This document shows, piece after piece, positions 4,257-56,738 of a stretch of DNA of 64,000 nucleotides. Source of the DNA: Thermodesulfovibrionales bacterium (lineage in GTDB: Bacteria > Nitrospirota > Thermodesulfovibrionia > Thermodesulfovibrionales > SM23-35); contig JAVHLL010000002.1 in NCBI GenBank assembly GCA_031082155.1, forward strand, positions 65,206 to 129,205, given 5' to 3'. The notes under the pieces were generated by a model. The model was not told the origin of the DNA. It was given only the letters and a program-made list of their open reading frames with translations, and searched no databases. Made by a program: the position numbers and the translations under genes. Numbering within the stretch: position 1 is the first letter of the stretch; each line of letters begins with the position of its first letter.

Positions 4257-5411
4257 ATGGACTATTTCTTCAATGAAGATCAAATAATGATAAAAGAACT
4301 GGTTCAGCAGATCGCAGAAGAAAAAATAAAACCGGTGAGAGAAGAACTTGATGAGAAAGAAGAGTTCCCCTGGGAAATTATGAAAGTGCTCGCACAGTCA
4401 GACCTTTTCGGTCTCTTTGTCCCAGAACAATACGGAGGGCTTGGGAAAGGATGCCTCGAGTTATGCATTGCCGTTGAGGAACTTTCTCGTGCTTGTCTGG
4501 GTGTCGCAACGACCTATGCAGCAAATGCGCTTGGCACGTATCCTATCCTGCTGTACGGTTCGGAAGAGCAGAAAAATAAATACTTGCCTGATATTGCCGC
4601 GGGAAAACGACTGGTTGCGTTTGGCCTGACAGAACCGAATGCGGGAAGCGATGCAGCGGGAATACAGACAACCGCAAAACTCAACGGGAACGAATATATT
4701 CTGAACGGAACAAAGCAGTGGATTACGAACGGAGGAGAGGCTGAAATCTATGCCATCATCGCCATGACCGACAAATCAAAAGGCGCACGGGGAGCGACTG
4801 CATTTATTGTAGAGAAAGGAACCCCGGGTTTCCAATTCGGAAAGAAAGAAAAAAAGATGGGTATCAGGTGTTCCTCTACCCGTGAGCTTATCTTTGACAG
4901 CTGCAGGATACCGCGTGGAAATATTATCGGGAAAGAAGGGCTGGGTTTCATTATTGCGATGAAGACTCTTGATAATGCACGTGCAGGCGTTGGCGCTCAG
5001 GGGGTAGGAATAGCACAGGGAGCATTCGAAGAGGCATTCAGTTTTGCCCGGAAGCGCGTCCAGTTCGGACATCCGATCGTGAGCTTCCAGGCGGTGCAGC
5101 ATATGCTTGCAGATATGGCCACGGAGATTGAAGCAGCGCGGGCACTTGTGTATTCAGTTGCGCGGTTTGCAGATATGGGCGTAAAAGATTTCACAAAAGA
5201 GTCTGCGATGGCGAAAGTCTTTGCCACGGATATGGCGATGCGGGTAACGACGAATGCGGTACAAGTGATGGGGGGATCCGGGTACATGAGGGAATATCCG
5301 GTGGAAAAGATGATGCGCGATGCCAAAATACTACAGATTTATGAGGGAACAAACCAGATTCAGAGAAATGTTATTGGACAGGCGTTAATCAGAGAGGCAG
5401 CAAAGAAATAA
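4257..5411 (+). CDS. acyl-CoA dehydrogenase (short/butyryl-CoA type)
   Basis: 384 aa with FGLTEPNAGSDA, QWITNGG and C-terminal YEGTNQIQR, all hallmark ACAD motifs. RBS GGAGGAG lies upstream. Confidence 0.9.
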   Translation: MDYFFNEDQIMIKELVQQIAEEKIKPVREELDEKEEFPWEIMKVLAQSDLFGLFVPEQYGGLGKGCLELCIAVEELSRACLGVATTYAANALGTYPILLYGSEEQKNKYLPDIAAGKRLVAFGLTEPNAGSDAAGIQTTAKLNGNEYILNGTKQWITNGGEAEIYAIIAMTDKSKGARGATAFIVEKGTPGFQFGKKEKKMGIRCSSTRELIFDSCRIPRGNIIGKEGLGFIIAMKTLDNARAGVGAQGVGIAQGAFEEAFSFARKRVQFGHPIVSFQAVQHMLADMATEIEAARALVYSVARFADMGVKDFTKESAMAKVFATDMAMRVTTNAVQVMGGSGYMREYPVEKMMRDAKILQIYEGTNQIQRNVIGQALIREAAKK

Positions 5412-10521: not shown

Positions 10522-10763
10522 ATCATAGGGGCATAATAATTCAGTCATTCGGATAGCGTTCTGCCACCGCTAAGTTCAAGCATCGGCCGTAATTAATTAC
10601 CCTTTATGAATTAATCGATGTTATCTATATTTCAGTAAACAATGATAGAAATGAACTATTGGACAAGATAGTGATAGAAAAGTGAAAGTATATGCAAAGA
10701 TAATTTTATGGAGCTTCAGACGGGCAAATGGTATATGAATCTGACAAACGGTAAGTGAGAAAA

Positions 10764-11813
10764 ATGCGCCTTTTCAAGAAAAAAACCCTGACAGGGCTAT
10801 CCCGTACGTGCGGCTGAGCAGCGAAAATTGGTCCGTCGGATCTGGCGGAAGCATTAAAAGCGCTTACTCCTTCACAGGATCCTAACCTTCTTGTCGGCTT
10901 CAATACTGCCGATGATGCGGCAGTGTACCGGCTCTCGGATGAGATAGCCTTTATCAGTACTGTTGATTTCATTACCCCGCCGGTGGATGATCCGTATTGG
11001 TTTGGACAAATTGCTGCAGCAAATTCCCTTTCGGATGTTTACGCAATGGGCGGAAAACCTCTTACTGCCCTGAACCTCGTCATGTTTCCTCCAAAGAAAC
11101 TTGACAAGAGCGTTTTGAAGGAAATACTCCATGGGGGGAATGACAAAGTCCTTGAATCCGGTGCTTCTATGGCTGGAGGACATTCTGTGGACGACAATGA
11201 GCCAAAGTATGGTCTTGCTGTTACAGGAATCGTCCATCCCGATAAAATACTGACAAACTGCGGGGCCCGGGAAGGCGATGTTTTGATTCTCACAAAACCA
11301 TTAGGCACCGGGGTCCTGTTTAATGCGTGCAGATCAGGAAAACTGTCATTCAACGAACTGGAAATACTCTTGCCTCAGGTGGCCTCGCTGAATAAAAAAT
11401 CTCTCGATATTGCACGGAGTTTTGACATCCATTCATGTACTGACATTACCGGGTTTGGTATTGTAGGACATTCGTGGGAGATGGCAGCAGGGAGTAGAGT
11501 GCAGATAGACCTTTTCTATAATGAACTGCCGTTTTATCCTCACGCGCTTGAAATGTATCGGAAAGGCGAAACCACTGGTAGCAATAAAGCAAATAGAAAA
11601 CTTTCAGAAGGCCGTCTGGAGATAGCCGCAAAATTGACGAAGGAGGAGGTAGAATTGCTCTTTGATCCGCAAACATCCGGTGGTCTTCTCCTGTCTGTTC
11701 CAGAGTCTCAGTCACAGAAGATGATGAGCGAAATGAAAACCGCCGGTATAGACACTATTGCAAAAATCGGCGAAGTGATAGCAAATCCGAATCCTTGTAT
11801 CAGAGTTATATAG
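10764..11813 (+). CDS. selD: selenide, water dikinase SelD, selenocysteine-containing (in-frame TGA at 10815-10817)
   Basis: ATG 10764 is in frame with track ORF 10923-11813. The product reads MRLFKKKTLTGLSRTCG-U-AAKIGPSDL...DPNLLVGFNTADDAAVY. The TGA sits exactly where E. coli SelD has the catalytic Cys (GxGCKI). Confidence 0.85.
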
Positions 11814-16586: not shown

Positions 16587-16662
16587 GTCATTCCCGCTTG
16601 TCGTCCCGAATGCTTTCGGAATTTCTGAAAACACGGAAGGATTGCGGACAAACCGCAATGAC
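16587..16662. repeat. REP/MITE-like element (GTCATTCCCGCTTGTC ... GACAAACCGCAATGAC)
   Basis: 76-nt element with imperfect terminal inverted repeats. It shares termini and the core GGAAGGATT..GACAA with the copy at 46593-46666. Confidence 0.65.
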
Positions 16663-16717: not shown

Positions 16718-16792
16718 TGGAGCGGGCGACGGGATTCGAACCCGCGACTTTCAGCTTGGGAAGCTAACACTCTACCACTGAGTTACGCCCGC
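16718..16792 (-). tRNA. tRNA-Gly (anticodon CCC)
   Basis: The reverse complement is GCGGGCGTAACTCAGTGGTAGAGTGTTAGCTTCCCAAGCTGAAAGTCGCGGGTTCGAATCCCGTCGCCCGCTCCA. It forms a cloverleaf with anticodon loop UUCCCAA and an encoded CCA. Confidence 0.9.
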
Positions 16793-17000
16793 AAATCAAT
16801 AACTTACGGGATAGTATAACATTCAGTGTCATAAAAATGTCATAATTTTTACATCAGGAAGCTGATGAGTTATCTTAGTAAATCAACCACTTACCTTCTA
16901 ACGCTGACTGTCATAAAATAGTAACAATTTTCAGCTCGGAAGCTGACACTCTAACCCTTATGCTCGCAAATTAAGGACTTAGGGAGACAGTATAAAGATC
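16793..17000. repeat. decayed tandem copies of the tRNA-Gly 5' half plus upstream flank
   Basis: TTCAGCTCGGAAGCTGACACTCTAACCCTTATGCTCGCAAATTAAGGACTTAGGG (about 16930-16985) aligns to TTCAGCTTGGGAAGCTAACACTCTACCACTGAGTTACGCCCGCAAATCAATAACTTACGGG of the live gene. A further deleted copy lies around 16856-16905. The spacers GTCATAAAAATGTCATAATTTTTACATC and GTCATAAAATAGTAACAATTTTCAGCTC are also related. Confidence 0.6.
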
Positions 17001-17011
17001 TGCTGTTATAG

Positions 17012-18058
17012 TTAACTTCTGTGTATAAAACACTGAGGATCTTCAGCAAGAAAGTCATTTTCTCCATGTGCTTTTGAAAAAGCATATGCTATGGCCCTGC
17101 AACCCCTGCAAAAAGCCCATCGGTTGCAGTCCCCGCATTTGCCCTGATACCTGCCCCTGTCCCGAATGGCTTCCAGCACACCGGATGTTGCCCAGACCTC
17201 TCTCAATGAGTCCCGTTTGATATTCCCGATAGGGATATGCAGCCTTCTGCAGGGGACAAGAGTGCCGTCAGGGAGGATCGTAAGACCTGAAAGACCGGCA
17301 GCGCACCCACCGGTTAAAAGGTCACGATTTTCAGTATCTCCGGATGTGCTGAGCTGTGAAGCAACGGGATCGCCGGTAACTATTTCGAGGCTACCTGTAT
17401 CTACAGAAAAGATTTTTCTGTAGAGGTCCAGAATATCATTGCTGCTCAACATATCTTTCAGCATCGCCTTTCCCTGGCCGGAGGGTACGAGCCGCGAAAA
17501 GCCAAGCCGGTGGACACCAAAATTTGAAGCAAGACCGATCAGGTCCATGAAATAGTTTGCATTAATACGTGACAGCGTGGTGTTGAGCGTAACTTTTAAG
17601 CCGGCATCAAGAAGATGTTTAATGCCCTTACGCGATCCTGAAAAACTTCCCTTTCCCCGAATCGATTCATGAACTGCTTCAGGGCCTTCAATGCTCACCT
17701 GCACTCCTTTTACTCCGAGATTGAACAGAACCTTAGCTGTTTTTTTGTCTACGAGAATACCATTGGTAAGCAGGAACACATCGAATCCGCGGTTGATGAT
17801 CTCCTCCAGGACCTCAAAAAGATCTTTGCGCAAAAAGGGTTCACCTCCGGTAACATTGAAACTCGTTGCATATTTTATGTCATAGGTTTCTTTCCATGCG
17901 GTAATCGTATCCGCTATTTCGCCTGTTATTTCTTCTATCTCACGGAGCGACATCTCATTTACTGTTTTCCCGGTCTGATAGCAATGTTTACAGCGGAGGT
18001 TACACCGTTCTGTGAGGTGAAGTTGGATAAAAAATTCAAAGGCGTTATTAATCGGCAT
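17012..18058 (-). CDS. radical SAM/SPASM domain peptide-maturase-like enzyme
   Basis: CNLRCKHCY (CxxxCxxC), GGEPFL, and a C-terminal Cys-rich SPASM region GGCAAG...CGDC...CRGCRAIAY...CF. Confidence 0.85.
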   Translation of the reverse strand: MPINNAFEFFIQLHLTERCNLRCKHCYQTGKTVNEMSLREIEEITGEIADTITAWKETYDIKYATSFNVTGGEPFLRKDLFEVLEEIINRGFDVFLLTNGILVDKKTAKVLFNLGVKGVQVSIEGPEAVHESIRGKGSFSGSRKGIKHLLDAGLKVTLNTTLSRINANYFMDLIGLASNFGVHRLGFSRLVPSGQGKAMLKDMLSSNDILDLYRKIFSVDTGSLEIVTGDPVASQLSTSGDTENRDLLTGGCAAGLSGLTILPDGTLVPCRRLHIPIGNIKRDSLREVWATSGVLEAIRDRGRYQGKCGDCNRWAFCRGCRAIAYAFSKAHGENDFLAEDPQCFIHRS

Positions 18059-18118
18059 AATCAGTTTTTTGAAGGATATATACTGTTCTCATCTCATGTC
18101 CGTGAATAATGTATGGCA

Positions 18119-18164
18119 GGACGGTATATCCAAATAATATACAGGTCCTGCCATACGTTTTTGA
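18119..18164 (-). other. long stem-loop between mini-ORF and radical SAM gene
   Basis: GTATGGCAGGAC / GTCCTGCCATAC is a perfect 12-bp stem, extended internally by GTATAT/ATATAC. It lies in the 128-nt gap between the two minus-strand genes. Confidence 0.6.
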
Positions 18165-18167
18165 ATT

Positions 18168-18186
18168 AGTTGCTTGACCAGCAACT
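18168..18186 (-). promoter_or_regulatory. SECIS-like hairpin (AGUUGCU-GGUCA-AGCAACU)
   Basis: Perfect 7-bp stem with a GGUC-containing apical loop, starting directly after the TAA of the mini-ORF. The loop begins 16 nt after the second in-frame UGA. Confidence 0.5.
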
Positions 18187-18306
18187 TTAGCTCTTTCAGG
18201 ACTTTCATTTGCGGCATACCTTGCCGGGAACTTCCATCGCCTTTTTCAGGCTATCCCACAAGGCAGCCTCTTTCATGAGAGATTTTTCACTTAAAGGTCT
18301 TTTCAC
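18187..18306 (-). CDS. candidate Sec-containing RiPP precursor (39 codons if both UGAs are read as Sec; 33 aa otherwise)
   Basis: GTG start 7 nt after AAGGAGGTGA. The product is MKRPLSEKSLMKEAALWDSLKKAMEVPGKVCRK-UGA-KS-UGA-KS-TAA (TGA at 18205-18207 and 18196-18198). It lies immediately upstream of the rSAM/SPASM gene on the same strand. Confidence 0.5.
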
Positions 18307-18724
18307 CCGTATCACCTCCTTTCATATTGAAATTTGCTATAGGTTATTTATTTTCCATTCTTTTTATCTATAAGTAAATATTAGCAGATTTATTTGACTT
18401 TTTCAGGCATCACAAAAAATCACAAAAAATAAAATAACATTGATACAGTGGACAGATATCTGGGGGGTTAGGATATGCCCTAAGCTTCTGTGCTGTTGTT
18501 ACGTTCCAATGGCAAAACAAAAAACTATCTCCTGAGGCAATATGCCTTTTCAGCAAGGCAGAATATCTGTGAATCCAAACGAGTCATGTACTTATTATCA
18601 ATAAAATTAATAGGCTATTCCCGTGCATTTGTTTTGCTGATTGGAGTTACAAGGAAAGAGCAAGTAATATAGGTGGTATAATTGAAAAAGTTCCAGAAAG
18701 GAATGAGGCAAGGAGGGGAGAAAC

Positions 18725-19034
18725 CATGAAAAGGTATGGCGTTGTTGTTATCGGGGCAGGTGATGTCGGCCTCGGGGTAGCGTTCAAGGTGTCGTCTTCC
18801 GACCTGAAGATAGCCCTTATCGATAAGGGAAATGTAGGGGGAACCCTTTATGGTTGCCGCAGGCAGGAAGTCTAATGCTGATATCCTGAAGGTTGAGAAT
18901 GCGGGTCTGGAAACGAATGAAAATGGATTTCAGCGCTGTACCCCATGCGGTATTTGTCTATCCGCGCCAAATCAATGCATATATTCCCAGCTCTTTCGGA
19001 TCTGATTCCAGAGGCGTTTAATAATCTGGAATAA
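18725..19034 (+). pseudogene. remnant of an FAD-dependent pyridine nucleotide-disulfide oxidoreductase
   Basis: MKRYGVVVIGAGDVGLGVAFK...IDKGNVGGT (the FAD GxGxxG N-terminus) jumps straight to ...AAGRKSNADILKVENAGLETNENGF and then, in another frame, to the C-terminal ...FPALSDLIPEAFNNLE*. It spans about 310 bp, whereas intact homologues of this family need well over 1 kb. Confidence 0.75.
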
Positions 19035-46592: not shown

Positions 46593-46666
46593 GTCATTCT
46601 GGCTTGTCCAGAATCTTTCTTGTAATACTAAAACATCAGGAAGGATTCCCGACAAGCGGGAATGAC
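46593..46666. repeat. REP/MITE-like element (GTCATTCTGGCTTGTCC ... CGACAAGCGGGAATGAC)
   Basis: 74-nt intergenic element. Its right end is the exact reverse complement of the left end (GTCATTCCCGCTTGTCG) of the copy at 16587. Confidence 0.65.
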
Positions 46667-46818: not shown

Positions 46819-48187
46819 GGAGTCTTGTCAATAGGTGTGTAAAAAGCATTTAGGCGGCCATCCTTTCAAGCACGTTTGTTTCATGCTTCATAACGCCATC
46901 GACAAACCTTTTCCCTGTATAGACATCAGACAATAACCAGTATCCTTTTAAGGTACGGAAGTTCTTCTCCGCTACCTGAAGGAGTTTCCAAATCATTGCC
47001 GTTGCGTTTTGTACTTTCTTGAAACGCTTTGCAGCATCAGTCCTTAGTCTTACCGAACTGAAGGGAGATTCCACCACGTTCGTTGTCCGAATATGTACCC
47101 AGTGCTCCTTCGGGAATGAATAGAAGGTGATCATCCGATCCCAATCAGAGAGGAGCTTCTCCGCTGCCTTCGGATAATCCTTCCGGTACCGGTCGACGAA
47201 TGCATCCCTGAGCCGCTCGCACTCCGAAAGAGTCTCTGCATAAGGAATGCGCTTGAGATATTCCCCGGCCTCGGAGCGTATCCTCTTGGGGAAACAGTTA
47301 AGAACATTCCTGATTTTATGGTTCCAGCATCGCTGTTCCTTTCCCTCTGGATGGAGTTCTCCAAGAGCAGACCATATTCCGAGGTGTCCATCGGCAATTG
47401 TCAGTCTGCCAAGTTTCAGTCCCCGAGCCGTCAGGTTTCTCAAAACTCCACTCCAGGATTCCTTGCTCTCCCGGTAGCCGCTCTCACAGGCAAGAAAGAC
47501 TTTCTTCCCATTTGTGAGCCCTCCGATAATGACAAGAAGCGCCGCCTTGTCTTTTTCAAGGCCGGCTTTCACGTATATCCCGTCTGCCCACTGATAGACT
47601 ACTTCAAGTCTCGACATATCCAGTTGTTTCCATTCTGCATACTCCCGCTGCCATTTCGCCTTCAGCCGATCTATTGATGAGGCCGACAACGGCGCTCCAT
47701 CTCCCAATAAGCCCCTGAGCGCCAATTCAAAATCTCCTTTTGCCAAGCCGTGCAGGTATAACTCGGGTAAGAGTTGCCCTACTTCTTTCGACCGGCGCTT
47801 GAAAAAAGGGATTATCTTGCTTTCAAACCGATCCTCCGACCCCCTGACACGAGGGCGACGGACGGTGATCGTTCCATTCATTACGGAGAACTTCTTCGGT
47901 TTCCCGTGGCCGCTCCAATATCCAGGCGTTCCATCGACCATCGTAAGCCTCTCGGATTTCTTCCTTCCCAGAAATGTCTCGACTTCTTCCTCCAGTATGT
48001 CCTGAATGTATTCCTGAACCTTTAGCCGAACCATCTCCTCCAATACCTCATACGTTGCTCTTGACGGTTTTGCCGTCTCGGTGATACTCTTTCTCATGGT
48101 GGTGTCTCCTTTTCTTTGTTGATTTCGAGTTCAACTTAAAAGGATACACCGCCTTTCATCTATTTGCACACTTTTTGATTGTACTCC
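46819..48187 (-). mobile_element. IS256-family insertion sequence (1369 bp) with 9-bp target-site duplication
   Basis: Imperfect terminal inverted repeats GGAGTCTTGTCAATAGGTGTGTAAAAAG and (reverse complement) GGAGTACAATCAAAAAGTGTGCAAATAG, about 20/28 matching. It is flanked by direct repeats CTCAGTGAT at 46810-46818 and 48188-48196. Confidence 0.85.
46850..48097 (-). CDS. IS256-family (Mutator-type) transposase
   Basis: 415 aa with ...YQWADGIYVKAG...LVIIG...IADGHLGIWSAL...RCWNHKIRNVLN..., matching the IS256/MULE DDE transposase pattern. Confidence 0.9.
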   Translation of the reverse strand: MRKSITETAKPSRATYEVLEEMVRLKVQEYIQDILEEEVETFLGRKKSERLTMVDGTPGYWSGHGKPKKFSVMNGTITVRRPRVRGSEDRFESKIIPFFKRRSKEVGQLLPELYLHGLAKGDFELALRGLLGDGAPLSASSIDRLKAKWQREYAEWKQLDMSRLEVVYQWADGIYVKAGLEKDKAALLVIIGGLTNGKKVFLACESGYRESKESWSGVLRNLTARGLKLGRLTIADGHLGIWSALGELHPEGKEQRCWNHKIRNVLNCFPKRIRSEAGEYLKRIPYAETLSECERLRDAFVDRYRKDYPKAAEKLLSDWDRMITFYSFPKEHWVHIRTTNVVESPFSSVRLRTDAAKRFKKVQNATAMIWKLLQVAEKNFRTLKGYWLLSDVYTGKRFVDGVMKHETNVLERMAA

Positions 48188-51258: not shown

Positions 51259-51393
51259 CTCCCTGTATTTTTATACAGTATAACCAGAAATACAGATAAA
51301 GATAACCACATAAAATATTATCATAGGTGAAAGGTCTGAAAGAGTTGACGTTGCTGGTCATGTAATTCAACCGAACAAGTAAGACAGAACATG

Positions 51394-53313
51394 TTAATGC
51401 AAAACGTGCTCGGTAATATATTCTTCCTGCTCGGTCTCATTTTTCAGTAGTATCCTTATATCCCCTACCCGTCGTGTAACCTGAACAAAATCGAGATAGT
51501 TGAGAAAGTGGATGGCATATTTACTTCCAACTCCGCAACACTGTTTGAATTCCTTAACAGTCATCCCGGATTTCGTACCAAAGAATAATTTTAATTGTTC
51601 TACTATTTTCTTGAATACCGATGATGCGAGATAGAGTGAATCGTTAATTCTTATCAGTAATCCCTGTTTTGTGAGAATTTTCATAATATCCGATGACTTG
51701 CCCGGTTCAATAAGGAGTGACCGACAGATTTCTTCTCTTAGTGGAGGACGACATCCTGCCTTCTCAATAATTGCAAGGACTCTGTTTTTAAGTTCATTGT
51801 CCTCCTGTGATAATAAGGTATTGAATGAGGAAAGCCTTGCAATATCTCTCTCTATAATTAATTCCGGTAATTTGGCAACGATGAAGTCAAAGAACTTTGG
51901 TTGCATATTCAGGCAACTTCTGAGTTCCTCTTTCGGCATTCCGGCTTTGAGGGGATTTCTTTTATGGAAATATATCAGCGCACTTTTCGCGAGCTCTCCA
52001 ATACGGTGAAAAATATTTTTATGCATCAACAAATCGCCGTTCATGAGAATACTACCATTTTTCCTGAGTTCTGTAATAGCATTGTGAATAACCGGGATAT
52101 CTGCATGAATCCAGCCTTCAATGAAAGGAGCAGATATTCCTTGGATACCTGAACGCATTACTTTTGCTTCGATTTTTTCTGTCAGTGAACCGCGCTCCAG
52201 AACAGGCAGGCTTTCAAGATTTTTTCTATGGCTCATTTTATAAGAAGTAGAATCAAGGACCACTCCGCCGCCTATGGTATCAAGCGGTGAAAATCTTCTG
52301 ATTATAAATCTGTCGCCTGACATGACTATAACCGGTTCCTGAAGCCTGAACTGGCAATACCATGATTCACCCGGCGCCATCTTTTTCTTTTCGTATAAAA
52401 TAACCCTCGCCATGTTTTCCGTGGTTCCGATATGGAGATGCACAATATCCCTGTTCTTCAACTCCGGCGCATTGGGAAGGAGTTTCAATTTTGCATCAAT
52501 CACAGCTGAAGGGATGAACCTACCGGGCATAACTACTGCATCCCCCCTTTTTAATGCCTCTTTCTCAACACCCTGAAGGTTAATTGCAACTCTTTGCCCC
52601 GCACAGGCTTTTTCTATGGACTTGCCATGACTATGCAGGCCTCGCACTTTACTTTTAATATTGCTCGGAAGAATATTTACTTCATCATTTAAGGAGATGA
52701 ATCCTGAAACAGCAGTACCTGTTACCACAGTTCCAAACCCTTTTAAGGTAAAAACCCTGTCTATGGGTAAGCGGAAAATGCCCTTTACAGACTTTGGATC
52801 AACTGTGAAAGCAACTGCCCTGATCTTATCTTTGAGGATGTCAATATTCAGCATGGTCTTCGAAGAGACAGGAACAATCTGTGCATTTTCAAGGAATGAG
52901 CCCGCAACAAAGGCCCTGACATCTTCCTTTACCAGATCGAGCCATTCATCGTCTACAATATCTACCTTTGTTATAGCGATAATACCCGTTTTGATTCCCA
53001 GTAAATTACAGATATGAAGGTGTTCCCTGCTTTGCGGCATGACTCCTTCGTCCGCATCGATAACGAGAAGAACCATATCAATTCCGCTCGCTCCTGCAAG
53101 CATATTCCTGATCAGGCGTTCATGTCCCGGCACATCAACTATGCCCACGGTAAGGCCATCAGGATATCTCAAATCAGCAAAACCGAGATCAATCGTTATA
53201 CCTCGTTCTTTTTCTTCCTTGAGACGGTCGGGATCTATCCCGGTGAGGGCTTTTACAAGGGCACTCTTGCCATGATCGATATGTCCTGCTGTTCCGAGAA
53301 TTCTGTAATGCAT
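51394..53313 (-). CDS. selB: selenocysteine-specific elongation factor SelB
   Basis: From ATG 53313 the product reads [46 protein letters not shown]...[12 protein letters not shown]...TKVD. A long winged-helix C-terminal half follows, for 639 aa in total. Confidence 0.9.
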
Positions 53314-53339
53314 GTTTTTCTTTTGGAAGAAATGTTTTT

Positions 53340-53434
53340 TGGAGAAGGGAAGTGGGAATCGAACCCACCATGAGCTTTTCTTCACTCATGCACTGGTTTT
53401 GCAGACCAGGTGAGGCCCCAGCCCCCTACCCTCC
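53340..53434 (-). tRNA. tRNA-Sec-like tRNA (8/5 acceptor/T, long variable arm) with GCA (Cys) anticodon and U73
   Basis: The reverse complement is GGAGGGTAGGGGGCTGGGGCCTCACCTGGTCTGCAAAACCAGTGCATGAGTGAAGAAAAGCTCATGGTGGGTTCGATTCCCACTTCCCTTCTCCA. Acceptor GGAGGGUA/UUCCCUUC, T arm GUGGG-UUCGAUU-CCCAC, anticodon arm CUGGU-CUGCAAA-ACCAG, variable stem CAUGAG/CUCAUG, and CCA encoded. Confidence 0.8.
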
Positions 53435-53653
53435 AGTTGAATTATTATATTTATTATTACAATATGTCAAATAGATTAATTCAATATAATACGAATAATA
53501 TATTTAATTCATTAATGTCATCCCTTAATTCTATGTATATTTTCTAATATATAGTTATTATCTATTTTAATTATGATGATTAATTATGTTTAAAATACAA
53601 TATCAGAATTTAAAGCAACCATACTTAAACAACAACTTCAAAGGAGGATTTAT

Positions 53654-55694: not shown

Positions 55695-56738
55695 ATGGAG
55701 ATTTCACCAAAATTAGCAGAAAAAGCGCGTGCTGCAGGTTGAGCTTCAAAGATAAGTCCGTCGGACTTATCAGATATACTCGACGGCTTGCCTGCCAGCA
55801 AGGATCCGAATCTTCTTGTCGGGATTGAAACATCGGACGACGCAGGAGTATACCGCCTCACCCCTGAGATAGCCCTGATACAGACCCTTGATTTCTTCAC
55901 GCCGATAGTGAATGATCCCTATGATTTTGGTCGTATCGCTGCAGCCAATTCATTAAGCGATGTATATTCTATGGGAGGGAAGCCCCTTACAGCGATGAAT
56001 ATCGTCTGCTTTCCTATCAAAGAAATGGACAAGTCGGTTCTCCGGTCAATTCTTGAAGGAGGACTTGAGGTCATTCATAAATCCGGGGCCGTTATGGTTG
56101 GCGGGCATAGCGTGGAAGATCCGGAACTTAAATACGGACTCTCCGTAACTGGTGTTGTTCATCCTGAGCATTTCCTGAAAAATTCCGGAGCCAGACCGGG
56201 AGATATGCTTGTTCTTACCAAACCTTTGGGCACCGGTGTGCTTGCTACAGCATTGAAGGGACGTCTCCTTGATGATCGGACGACCAGCGTACTGACTGAT
56301 TTGATGGCAACCCTGAACAAAGATGCAGCGGAAGTTATGTCTGAAACAGGCGTAAATGCCTGTACCGATATAACGGGGTTCGGCCTTATCGGACATGCGC
56401 TCGAAATGGCCAAGGCCAGCAACGTCGGTATGCGCATTTATGCCGATAAAGTCCCGGTTATCCCGGAGGCCAAAAGCTTTGCCGCGATGGGAATGATTCC
56501 GGCCGGAAGTCATCTGAACCGTAAATTCTGTGCTCATCATCTCGACATCAGCCCTTCTATAAATCCTATTCTTTTGGATCTCTTTTCGGATGCGCAGACA
56601 TCAGGCGGTCTTCTCATCTCTGTTCCTGCACAAAAAATTCATACTCTTGTCCAGGGACTTCTTGAAAGGGAAACTCCCGCAGCCCACGTTATAGGAGAGG
56701 TGATCTCTGGACCGTCAGGAGTCATCCAGATACGGTAA
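55695..56738 (+). CDS. selD: selenide, water dikinase SelD, selenocysteine-containing (in-frame TGA at 55740-55742)
   Basis: ATG 55695 is in frame with track ORF 55788-56738. The product reads MEISPKLAEKARAAG-U-ASKISPSDL...DPNLLVGIETSDDAGVY. A perfect hairpin at 55751-55771 lies downstream of the TGA. Confidence 0.9.
55751..55771 (+). promoter_or_regulatory. SECIS-like hairpin of selD
   Basis: GATAAGTCC-GTC-GGACTTATC is a perfect 9-bp stem beginning 8 nt after the UGA. Confidence 0.6.

Follow-up and report, generated by a model that had tools for sequence, protein, structure and literature searches.

A candidate double-selenocysteine peptide family encoded beside a radical SAM/SPASM enzyme in a Thermodesulfovibrionales bacterium

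A described counterpart of the system considered here is SbtA/SbtM, in which, according to PMC11002830 and PMC13188914, a small selenocysteine (Sec) peptide is encoded beside a radical S-adenosylmethionine (SAM)/SPASM enzyme, with the Sec insertion sequence (SECIS) directly downstream. In this study, we analyzed a 64,000-nucleotide stretch of DNA from a Thermodesulfovibrionales bacterium (GenBank assembly GCA_031082155.1, contig JAVHLL010000002.1, positions 65,206 to 129,205; hereafter the window). An original prediction, made from the sequence alone, had placed in it a mini open reading frame (mini-ORF) with two in-frame UGA codons upstream of a radical SAM (rSAM) enzyme, and had proposed this locus as a member or relative of the SbtA/SbtM or 'selenobiotic' class. 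Judged by its conservation across loci, the mini-ORF is a real, widely conserved gene, and SelB/SECIS-type recoding of both UGAs is very likely. On balance, we favor the view that the mini-ORF is the first representative of a selenopeptide family (~39-40 aa) so far uncatalogued, whose genes in most cases directly precede that of a dedicated radical SAM/SPASM enzyme, and from the sequences the peptides are probably modified by this partner enzyme. The system resembles SbtA/SbtM in its way of working but is not a member of that class; it represents the selenopeptide-plus-SPASM theme in a new and independent form. The features of the locus are as follows.

18378 to 18406, minus strand: putative sigma-70 promoter of the mini-gene (-35 CTGAAA, 17-nt spacer, -10 TAATAT)
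18321 to 18312, minus strand: Shine-Dalgarno sequence AAGGAGGTGA, from sequence reading
18306 to 18187, minus strand: mini-ORF, 33 sense codons followed by UGA-Lys-Ser-UGA-Lys-Ser-TAA
18306 to 18304, minus strand: GTG start codon of the mini-ORF
18207 to 18205, minus strand: UGA1 (codon 34), 26 nt before the GUC of the hairpin loop
18198 to 18196, minus strand: UGA2 (codon 37), 17 nt before the GUC of the hairpin loop
18189 to 18187, minus strand: true stop codon TAA of the mini-ORF
18186 to 18168, minus strand: SECIS-like hairpin AGUUGCU-GGUCA-AGCAACU in the 3' untranslated region (UTR), starting 1 nt past the stop
18185 to 18169, minus strand: core stem GUUGCU/AGCAAC of the hairpin, with the apical loop GGUCA at 18179 to 18175
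18156 to 18111, minus strand: long stem-loop GUAUGGCAGGAC...GUCCUGCCAUAC between the mini-gene and the rSAM gene, a terminator or attenuator
17012 to 18058, minus strand: radical SAM/SPASM enzyme of 348 aa (Pfam Radical_SAM 3.8e-23, SPASM 8.9e-11)

Comparison with described systems

The selenobiotic class had been taken in the original prediction as one defined only in silico. This is outdated, as in vitro work has characterized SbtM and shown that it forms thio(seleno)oxazoles (Lewis et al. 2021, in the summary given by PMC11002830). The precursor model TIGR04081 is listed as 'selenobacteriocin', with the core motif SGUG, in PMC13188914. Membership of the present locus in this class did not hold up. 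The mini-ORF peptide gives no match and shows no detectable similarity to TIGR04081, and its core, placed at the very C-terminus, reads C-x-K-U-K-x-U-K-S instead of SGUG. Against the SbtM model (TIGR04082, cut-off 350), the enzyme scores 125.1 bits and aligns only to positions 199-516 of 516; the N-terminal ~200 positions of the model are missing, and the protein starts with the CX3CX2C motif. A further difference from SbtA/SbtM is that the mini-ORF SECIS lies wholly in the 3' UTR. Of the four defining features of SbtA/SbtM that we tested, three are not found at this locus, and the in-frame UGA together with a SECIS is found.

SCIFF peptides, to which the mini-ORF peptide is comparable in build, are highly conserved and ~40-45 aa long; their N-terminal part is conserved, their C-terminal part is rich in Cys, and they are thought to stay inside the cell. 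Like the precursors of the SCIFF/ranthipeptide maturases (CteB, Tte1186) and like PapA/PapB, the mini-ORF stands beside a SPASM rSAM enzyme without conserved protease or exporter genes, and its peptide, if modified, probably stays intracellular. In contrast to the mini-ORF enzyme, CteB, Tte1186 and PapB have an N-terminal recognition element (RRE) of ~100 residues for RiPPs (peptides made on ribosomes and modified after translation). The SCIFF maturase model is absent from the 25 best-scoring NCBIfam models of the mini-ORF enzyme, and we know of no natural Sec in SCIFF, ranthipeptide or PapA substrates.

Two further groups share features with the mini-ORF. In UXX-star (NF041114, NF041211) and KCU-star (NF033934), as PMC13188914 describes them, Sec is placed two to three residues ahead of the stop, and for that reason the SECIS must be past the coding region; for UXX-star and similar C-terminal-Sec families, this source suggests a metal-ligand role of Sec. 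These families are domains or proteins of other folds, whereas the mini-ORF peptide is predicted to contain two Sec residues and is accompanied by a partner rSAM gene. The UXXU hydrogenases, in the account of PMC13582414, have two UGAs 6 nt apart and apparently one downstream SECIS, which the survey proposed to serve both codons, and their genomes are enriched in tRNA-ReC (~56% in genomes with UXXU motifs vs ~2.3%). However, these hydrogenases are large, have homologues of the Cys type and carry the SECIS within the ORF, whereas the mini-ORF has a 39-aa product, no Cys homologue and a 3'-UTR SECIS.

The mini-ORF family and the probable recoding of its UGA codons

Direct reading of the sequence confirmed the predicted GTG mini-ORF with its in-frame TGAs at 18207 and 18198, the TAA and the GGUC-loop hairpin, as well as the rSAM gene that follows 128 nt past the TAA on the same strand (ORF 18058 to 17012). 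The predicted 39-aa product is MKRPLSEKSLMKEAALWDSLKKAMEVPGKVCRK-U-KS-U-KS, with AAG-TCC between UGA1 and UGA2 and AAG-AGC between UGA2 and TAA. The predicted Shine-Dalgarno sequence ahead of the GTG is present, but its spacing had to be corrected from 7 nt to 5 nt after the decamer or 8 nt after the GGAGG core. In all homologous loci, GAAAGGAGGTGA or GAAAGGGGGTGA precedes the start codon.

Homologous arrangements were found in ~20 independent metagenomic loci, and this recurrence, as judged from the sequences, is beyond chance. The close relatives of the rSAM enzyme (L003, L007 and L008; 87-92% identity) carry the same mini-ORF upstream. A back-translated metagenome scan with the 33-aa part gave 15 loci with peptide identities of 59-91%, a word-indexed search of 5.8 billion proteins gave 10 called peptides of 29-40 aa, and an exhaustive HMMER search of 1.84 billion representatives gave 66 clusters (50% identity level) at E<=0.001, 63 of which were counted as true family members. 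The idea that the mini-ORF is a real gene is borne out by the ~20 loci and the 66 clusters. Over these loci, the N-terminal 33-34 aa show synonymous third-position changes, conservative replacements, a one-codon indel and alternation of GTG and ATG starts, with KEAA[LF]W and PGK[VI]C[RH]K as conserved motifs. Almost all called peptides (68/72) stop exactly after C-x-K (CHK 33, CRK 24, CLK 6, CQK 3, CSK 2), and the consensus of the full tail is C-[RHLQS]-K-U-K-[SAG]-U-K-S. When the peptide and four diverse members (U written as C) were compared with NCBIfam release 20 (June 2026), 0 families were obtained at E<=10, and no Pfam model matches the mini-ORF peptide. The 2026 review table of PMC13188914 is said to list about 110 selenoprotein families, and among the families examined in it, no entry matched the mini-ORF peptide.

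Evidence for decoding of the UGAs comes from the codons that follow C-x-K. In every locus with DNA, this motif is followed by TGA-AAR-NNN-TGA-AAR-AGY-stop, with L023 as the exception at UGA1. UGA1 is TGA throughout, except for TTA in L023, and is never TAA or TAG; UGA2 is TGA in all loci, and both TGAs are kept in four subgroups. The third stop differs by lineage (TAA, TGA or TAG), with no in-frame conservation past it; a stop that varies in this way is selected to halt ribosomes reaching it in frame. Because the first two stops never leave TGA while the third drifts among all three stop codons, both UGAs appear to be recoded. The codons after UGA1 vary between AAG and AAA (Lys), twice independently, among TCC, GCC, AGC and GGC (Ser, Ala, Ser and Gly), and between AGC and AGT (Ser). 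By an informal estimate, which is not a statistical test, three of three synonymous wobble changes together with three stop-preserving changes would occur by chance at ~10^-3. In addition, the cluster P0148, which was called with TGA=Trp, reads ...CHK-W-KS-W-KS-W-SCRSATRH and thus carries the tail into a further distant subgroup. Coding selection on the UGAs and on the codons after them, conservation and covariation of the hairpin, and conservation of the gene pair, are demonstrated at the level of sequence comparison, and the predicted UGA read-through by means of a SECIS-type hairpin is strongly indicated. In L023 (2297 to 2440), TTC stands for the conserved Cys codon TGC and TTA for UGA1, which makes two G-to-T changes 9 nt apart; these could be a sequencing or DNA-damage artefact or could mark a decaying copy.

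The hairpin behind the stop codon folds at -9.1 kcal/mol (z = -4.8), with 0/200 shuffles as good. Across 13 distinct sequences, 78/78 stem cells are paired, and the closing pair is U-A (6), C-G (5) or U-G (2). A second compensatory change, from U-A to C-G, is seen in the stem of L030, L032 and L033 have the variant GUUGCC-GGUC-GGCAAC with a GGUC tetraloop, and the loop GGUC is invariant across the family. The best control comes from the window itself, as its two selD genes show, between Sec codon and loop GUC, the same spacing of 17 nt as UGA2. A TGA followed by a stem of at least 5 bp that presents GUC at 17 nt occurs 6 times in 64 kb (both strands), against 0.6 expected from shuffles, and three of these six sites are UGA2 of the mini-ORF and the two selD Sec codons. 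The Escherichia coli fdhF SECIS, whose UGA-SECIS sequence was verified against 5,419 genomes, has a 5' arm and loop, GUUGC-N-GGUC (GUUGCNGGUC), identical to those of the mini-ORF hairpin, and in both the apical loop lies 16-19 nt after the UGA; more exactly, GUUGC-A-GGUC stands 18 nt from the UGA in fdhF and GUUGC-U-GGUC 16 nt after UGA2 in the mini-ORF. Unlike the fdhF element, the mini-ORF hairpin is without an evident bulged U, has a stem of 6-7 bp with no lower helix, and is located past the stop codon. Rfam returned only spurious sub-threshold matches for the hairpin region. A 14/17 match to the 5' arm and loop, GTTGCTGGTCATGTAAT, was also noticed at 51350 to 51366 on the plus strand, just past the 3' end of selB and on the opposite strand to it; it is without a matching 3' arm and is probably a chance match.

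The mini-gene appears to be a transcription unit with signals of its own. The putative sigma-70 promoter was read from the window and from its relatives, as L003, L007 and L008 show TTGACA-N17-TAATAT at the aligned position; this promoter is not listed by the consensus scan of the window, which gave 4 promoter-like matches in 16900 to 18800 vs 3.8 expected. A conserved stretch of ~400 nt 5' of the mini-ORF (18307 to 18700) was considered as a wider element and rejected, since it is common only to L003, L007 and L008 and points to recent common ancestry. The long stem-loop at 18156 to 18111 folds at -27.9 kcal/mol (z = -6.6). A stem is found at this position in all loci, with sequences differing between loci, and the T-run after it is clear in the stand-alone CHK clade and L032 and interrupted in the window. 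A simple terminator scan did not call it (none in 16900 to 18800).

The window also holds genes for Sec decoding, together with a tRNA that bears on the identity of the inserted residue.

51394 to 53385, minus strand: SelB, the factor expected to bind the hairpin (TIGR00475, 360 bits vs cut-off 242; Pfam SelB wing and beta-barrel domains)
10755 to 11813, plus strand: selD copy A with an in-frame UGA at 10815, ...SRTCG-U-AAKIGPSDL (TIGR00476, 317 bits for the part after the UGA)
55725 to 56738, plus strand: selD copy B with an in-frame UGA at 55740, ...RAAG-U-ASKISPSDL
53344 to 53436, minus strand: tRNA-Sec-shaped tRNA-Cys(GCA) with U73 (tRNA-ReC/selC*-like), just upstream of selB

The presence of selB and two UGA-containing selD genes, as originally predicted, was verified by the TIGR00475 and TIGR00476 matches and the in-frame TGAs. 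The two selD copies are 49% identical over 336 aa, and both have a GUC-loop hairpin 17 nt after the UGA, with a stem of 9 bp in copy B. On this reading of their sequences, the selD genes show that the organism decodes UGA as Sec. A UGA upstream of the ORF at 4257 to 5411 was tried as another selD and rejected, as this ORF is an acyl-CoA dehydrogenase. What the original prediction overlooked is the tRNA-Sec-like tRNA-Cys(GCA), a possible source of Cys at the UGAs. ARAGORN calls it as tRNA-Cys(GCA) of 93 nt, and it scores 56 bits with Rfam tRNA-Sec (RF01852; gathering score 47). Its anticodon loop is CUGCAAA, and the discriminator U73 stands before CCA. A GCA anticodon with U73 is the tRNA-Cys identity set (PMC8762117), and selC*/tRNA-ReC tRNAs, with a UCA or GCA anticodon, decode SECIS-linked UGA as Cys according to PMC13582414, which cites Vargas-Rodriguez et al. 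2018. Residues 34 and 37 could be Sec, Cys or a mixture. Because no family member has UGC/UGU at either UGA position, the intended residue does not seem to be Cys, and we infer that Sec is inserted. The longest selB ORF (GTG at 53385) overlaps the 3' end of this tRNA gene.

The radical SAM/SPASM enzyme and its pairing with the peptide

The rSAM motif CX3CX2C of the enzyme consists of C19, C23 and C26, and the seven SPASM Cys (252, 270, 308, 311, 317, 320 and 343) follow the canonical pattern C252-X12-G-X4-C270, C308-X2-C311-X5-C317-X2-C320, C343. All ten of these Cys are invariant in 13 orthologues. Because seven Cys serve two [4Fe-4S] clusters, one auxiliary-cluster iron is left without a Cys ligand. 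In CteB-type thioether synthases, the open auxiliary-cluster iron site binds the substrate thiol. In the SPASM thioether synthases PapB and Tte1186, Sec is accepted where Cys normally stands, with its Se in contact with an Fe of an auxiliary cluster (PMC10177961). A thiol or selenol substrate would likewise fit the mini-ORF enzyme, in which the eighth Cys ligand is missing.

The closest solved structures are those of SkfB, PqqE and CteB, which are peptide-modifying enzymes. SkfB, CteB and 8VPO align to the mini-ORF enzyme only from residue ~100-112 of their own sequences, which shows that it is without the RRE domain. The 25 best-scoring NCBIfam models all stay below their cut-offs; the scores (bits/cut-off) are 174/500 for AhbD, 166/400 for the ACGX-system, 158/500 for NirJ2, 148/400 for GeoRSP, 130/265 for mycofactocin, 126/515 for NirJ and 125.1/350 for SbtM (TIGR04082). 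The original prediction had counted it as adverse if the enzyme should score as a non-peptide enzyme. This is the case in so far as the best match is AhbD, but at 174 vs 500 the match is sub-threshold. The haem-pathway SPASM enzymes AhbD and NirJ are similar in length to the mini-ORF enzyme and are also without an RRE; on the other hand, models of peptide systems score nearly as high (ACGX 166, GeoRSP 148), and no haem-pathway genes were seen beside the rSAM gene. Scanning of a genome contig collection with the rSAM protein gave only two unrelated SPASM loci of 24-29% identity.

A search for homologous UGA-containing mini-ORFs upstream of orthologous rSAM genes, which the original prediction had suggested, found them in three subclades, with the same order and orientation of the pair. 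Subclade A comprises the window, L003, L007 and L008; subclade B comprises L015-L023, L028-L030 and the P0127 contig; and subclade C comprises L032-L041, in which the rSAM enzyme is 54-56% and the peptide ~50% identical to those of the window. Because subclade C branches outside all others in a neighbor-joining tree, the pairing looks ancestral. The flanks of the pair are variable in A, with a DksA-like gene in B and a CxxCH-rich (multihaem-cytochrome-like) ORF of 428 aa in C. The genes downstream of rSAM include those for ArgRS, BipA, SdpI, CbbQ and a PAS kinase, with tRNA-Gly in the window. The divergent DksA-like neighbor was rejected as a part of the system, since it occurs in one subclade only.

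The predicted pairing stands for these three subclades with their differing flanks, but it is not general, as there are loci with the rSAM gene only (L004, L005, L009/L010) and loci with the peptide only (L024, L025, L031). Orthologous loci without an upstream ORF had been named beforehand as evidence against the proposal, and they do refute it in part; this is offset by the deep-branching pair of L032/L033. With these points taken together, a functional link between the peptide and the rSAM enzyme seems fairly likely to us, and the peptide is presumably the substrate of the enzyme. The rSAM-only loci and the peptide-only CHK loci, which are of similar divergence, might be two halves of one rearranged lineage.

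Several observations were made around these loci. In L004, L005 and L009/L010, a gene for a PF04020 (Phage_holin_4_2/YvlD-like) membrane protein of 125-130 aa lies 48-234 nt upstream of rSAM in the same orientation (at about 2390 to 2953 in locus coordinates), and in L009/L010 a second, unrelated radical SAM gene follows. L024 and L031 have a divergent ORF upstream of the stand-alone mini-ORF, with an N-terminus ...KGKPAICGLCPHGCW... that by eye resembles a molybdopterin oxidoreductase Fe-S motif, and L026 and L027 have a different upstream ORF of 167 aa, HAD-like by eye. Beyond the upstream ORF of L024/L031, the flanks of the CHK loci contain no gene in common with L025, L026 or L027. In the window, a degenerate partial copy of the tRNA-Gly 5' half and its upstream flank (~16930 to 16985, minus strand) lies between the rSAM stop and the intact tRNA-Gly(CCC) at 16718 to 16792 (minus strand), and could represent a pseudo-tRNA, the result of a duplication or the scar of an integration. 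A short repeat, GTCATTCCCGCTTGTCG..., is present twice in the window, at 16587 to 16603 (plus strand) and 46650 to 46666 (minus strand), with 0 copies expected by chance. In L015, L016 and L022, insertions similar to it separate the peptide gene from the rSAM gene. The repeat resembles a repetitive extragenic palindromic (REP) element or a miniature inverted-repeat transposable element (MITE), and its second copy in the window adjoins an IS256-family transposase (46850 to 48097, minus strand).

Proposed mechanism, rival explanations and significance

We propose that the mini-gene is driven by its own promoter and its strong ribosome-binding site. The ribosome would translate 33 codons, which make up a conserved, probably helical, leader-like part with KEAA[LF]W and PGKVC[RH]K, and would then reach UGA-AAG-NNN-UGA-AAG-AGC-stop. 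The hairpin of 6-7 bp with its GGUC(A) loop, 1 nt past the stop, would recruit SelB, which would deliver Sec-tRNA to UGA2, 17 nt ahead of the GUC, and presumably to UGA1 as well, 26 nt ahead of it. The third stop would be too near the hairpin for recoding, so that translation terminates there and leaves the tail C-x-K-U-K-x-U-K-S-COOH. Most likely, the rSAM enzyme would bind this thiol/selenol-rich tail and carry out a radical modification, for example to thioether or selenoether cross-links, and the intergenic stem-loop would limit read-through so that the peptide is made in excess of the enzyme. A more far-reaching version of this proposal, which we put forward tentatively, is that the product is an obligately selenium-dependent ribosomal mini-cofactor or natural product. 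It would have two Sec residues in a nine-residue basic tail, in which [C/U]-K-x occurs three times, and one 3'-UTR SECIS, and an RRE-less SPASM enzyme would cross-link or otherwise transform the tail, for example into selenoethers.

Several findings weigh against a selenopeptide family with a dedicated modifying enzyme. No homologue with Cys at the UGA positions was present among the 10 hits from 5.8 billion proteins or the 63 true hits from 1.84 billion representatives, and because no Cys-containing homologue was found, the usual support from Sec/Cys pairs is missing. UGA1 lies 9 nt further from the hairpin than the spacing in selD, without a second hairpin of its own. The only tRNA-Sec-like gene in the window carries a Cys anticodon, and neither selC(UCA) nor selA was seen within the 64 kb. 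With regard to the pairing, no mini-ORF lies within 3 kb of the rSAM orthologues in L004, L005 and L009/L010, which are 67-72% identical to the window enzyme, and the CHK peptide clade (L024, L025, L031) has no rSAM gene within 0.8-2.4 kb. The enzyme gives no Pfam match to PqqD/RRE and has no N-terminal extension, and neither a PqqD-like/RRE, protease or exporter gene nor any additional small gene is conserved near the peptide-rSAM pair. Finally, the top NCBIfam score of the enzyme, although far below the cut-off, belongs to a haem synthase, AhbD, which is a non-peptide enzyme.

Some of these findings would suit a stand-alone small selenoprotein, which is recoded and left unmodified and whose CxxUxxU tail serves in redox reactions, in metal/metalloid binding or as a selenium carrier; the rSAM gene would then be only a syntenic neighbor, or its enzyme would use the peptide as a partner and not as a substrate. 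The mini-gene has its own promoter, ribosome-binding site and stem-loop/terminator, the CHK clade is solitary with a clear T-run terminator, rSAM orthologues occur without an adjacent peptide, the rSAM enzyme is without an RRE, and the metal-ligand role suggested for C-terminal-Sec families in PMC13188914 would be in keeping with such a protein. We nevertheless consider it rather unlikely, as the pair persists over three subclades with full turnover of the flanks and with rSAM identity as low as 54%, a thiol/selenol substrate would fit a SPASM domain that lacks the eighth Cys ligand, and non-adjacent peptide and rSAM genes may co-occur elsewhere in the same genome. It is unlikely that the UGAs are recoded through SelB and the hairpin with one or both of them read as Cys by the tRNA at 53344 to 53436, which would make the product partly or wholly a Cys peptide. 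In that event, plain UGC/UGU variants would be expected, and none occurs among the 63 true family clusters; moreover, both selD genes of the window rely on UGA, so that a Sec-inserting system is expected. The tRNA itself has the properties needed for Cys insertion, namely a tRNA-Sec fold, a GCA anticodon and U73, and such tRNAs are those that, according to PMC13582414, decode SECIS-linked UGA as Cys and are enriched in UXXU genomes.

Two further explanations concern the RNA rather than the tail. If there were no recoding, UGA1 would be a real stop, the 33-aa product would end in C-R-K, and the downstream sequence and hairpin would form an RNA element for transcript stabilization or protein binding. 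In all clusters, UGA1 is where gene callers let the ORF end, no Cys homologues were found, and the short tail of 9-nt repeats (UGAAAGNNN) could be an RNA motif. Such an element would leave the alternation of the third stop among TAA, TGA and TAG, with the first two fixed as TGA, without a reason, and the same applies to the third-position changes after UGA1, which are all synonymous, to the encoding of Ser by both TCC and AGC, to the sense codon TTA at UGA1 in L023, and to the hairpin loop and spacing, which match two bona fide selD Sec sites and the fdhF SECIS. We therefore regard the absence of recoding as very improbable. The other explanation is a selenium-sensing leader peptide, in which the tandem Sec codons report the supply of Sec-tRNA and control read-through of the stem-loop into rSAM, as the Trp codons of the trp leader do. 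The succession of a short ORF containing two rare recoded codons, a strong stem-loop and a gene looks like such a device, as does the weakened T-run in the rSAM-linked clade. However, the stem-loop starts too far downstream for a ribosome paused at the true stop (31 nt away) or at UGA1 (49 nt away) to reach it, no alternative anti-terminator pairing was seen in folding, the peptide is retained in the CHK clade, where the terminator is full and no gene follows, and conservation of the peptide over 66 clusters would be needless for a mere sensor. Leader-peptide attenuation was rejected on its geometry and on the existence of stand-alone copies, and we give it hardly any probability.

In conclusion, a selenopeptide family with a partner SPASM enzyme, as favored here, would add a broadly distributed selenoprotein family of at least 66 clusters at 50% identity. 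It exposes a blind spot of current pipelines, which apply a minimum ORF length and look for pairs of Sec and Cys homologues, as the mini-ORF family fails on both counts. The locus is also a compact natural case in which two UGAs, one SECIS past the stop codon and a tRNA-ReC are found in the same genome, and its 39-aa product allows a direct test of UXXU decoding and of the partitioning between Sec and Cys. Should the tail be acted on by the rSAM enzyme, a new radical chemistry of Se-C or S-C bonds could be studied on a substrate that is small enough for synthesis. If the mini-cofactor proposal is true, it would be the second, evolutionarily independent natural selenopeptide-rSAM system, one that was missed by Sec/Cys-pair pipelines because no Cys form exists, and its conservation across anaerobic lineages, with Nitrospirota as their nearest named relatives, would resemble that of a housekeeping function.

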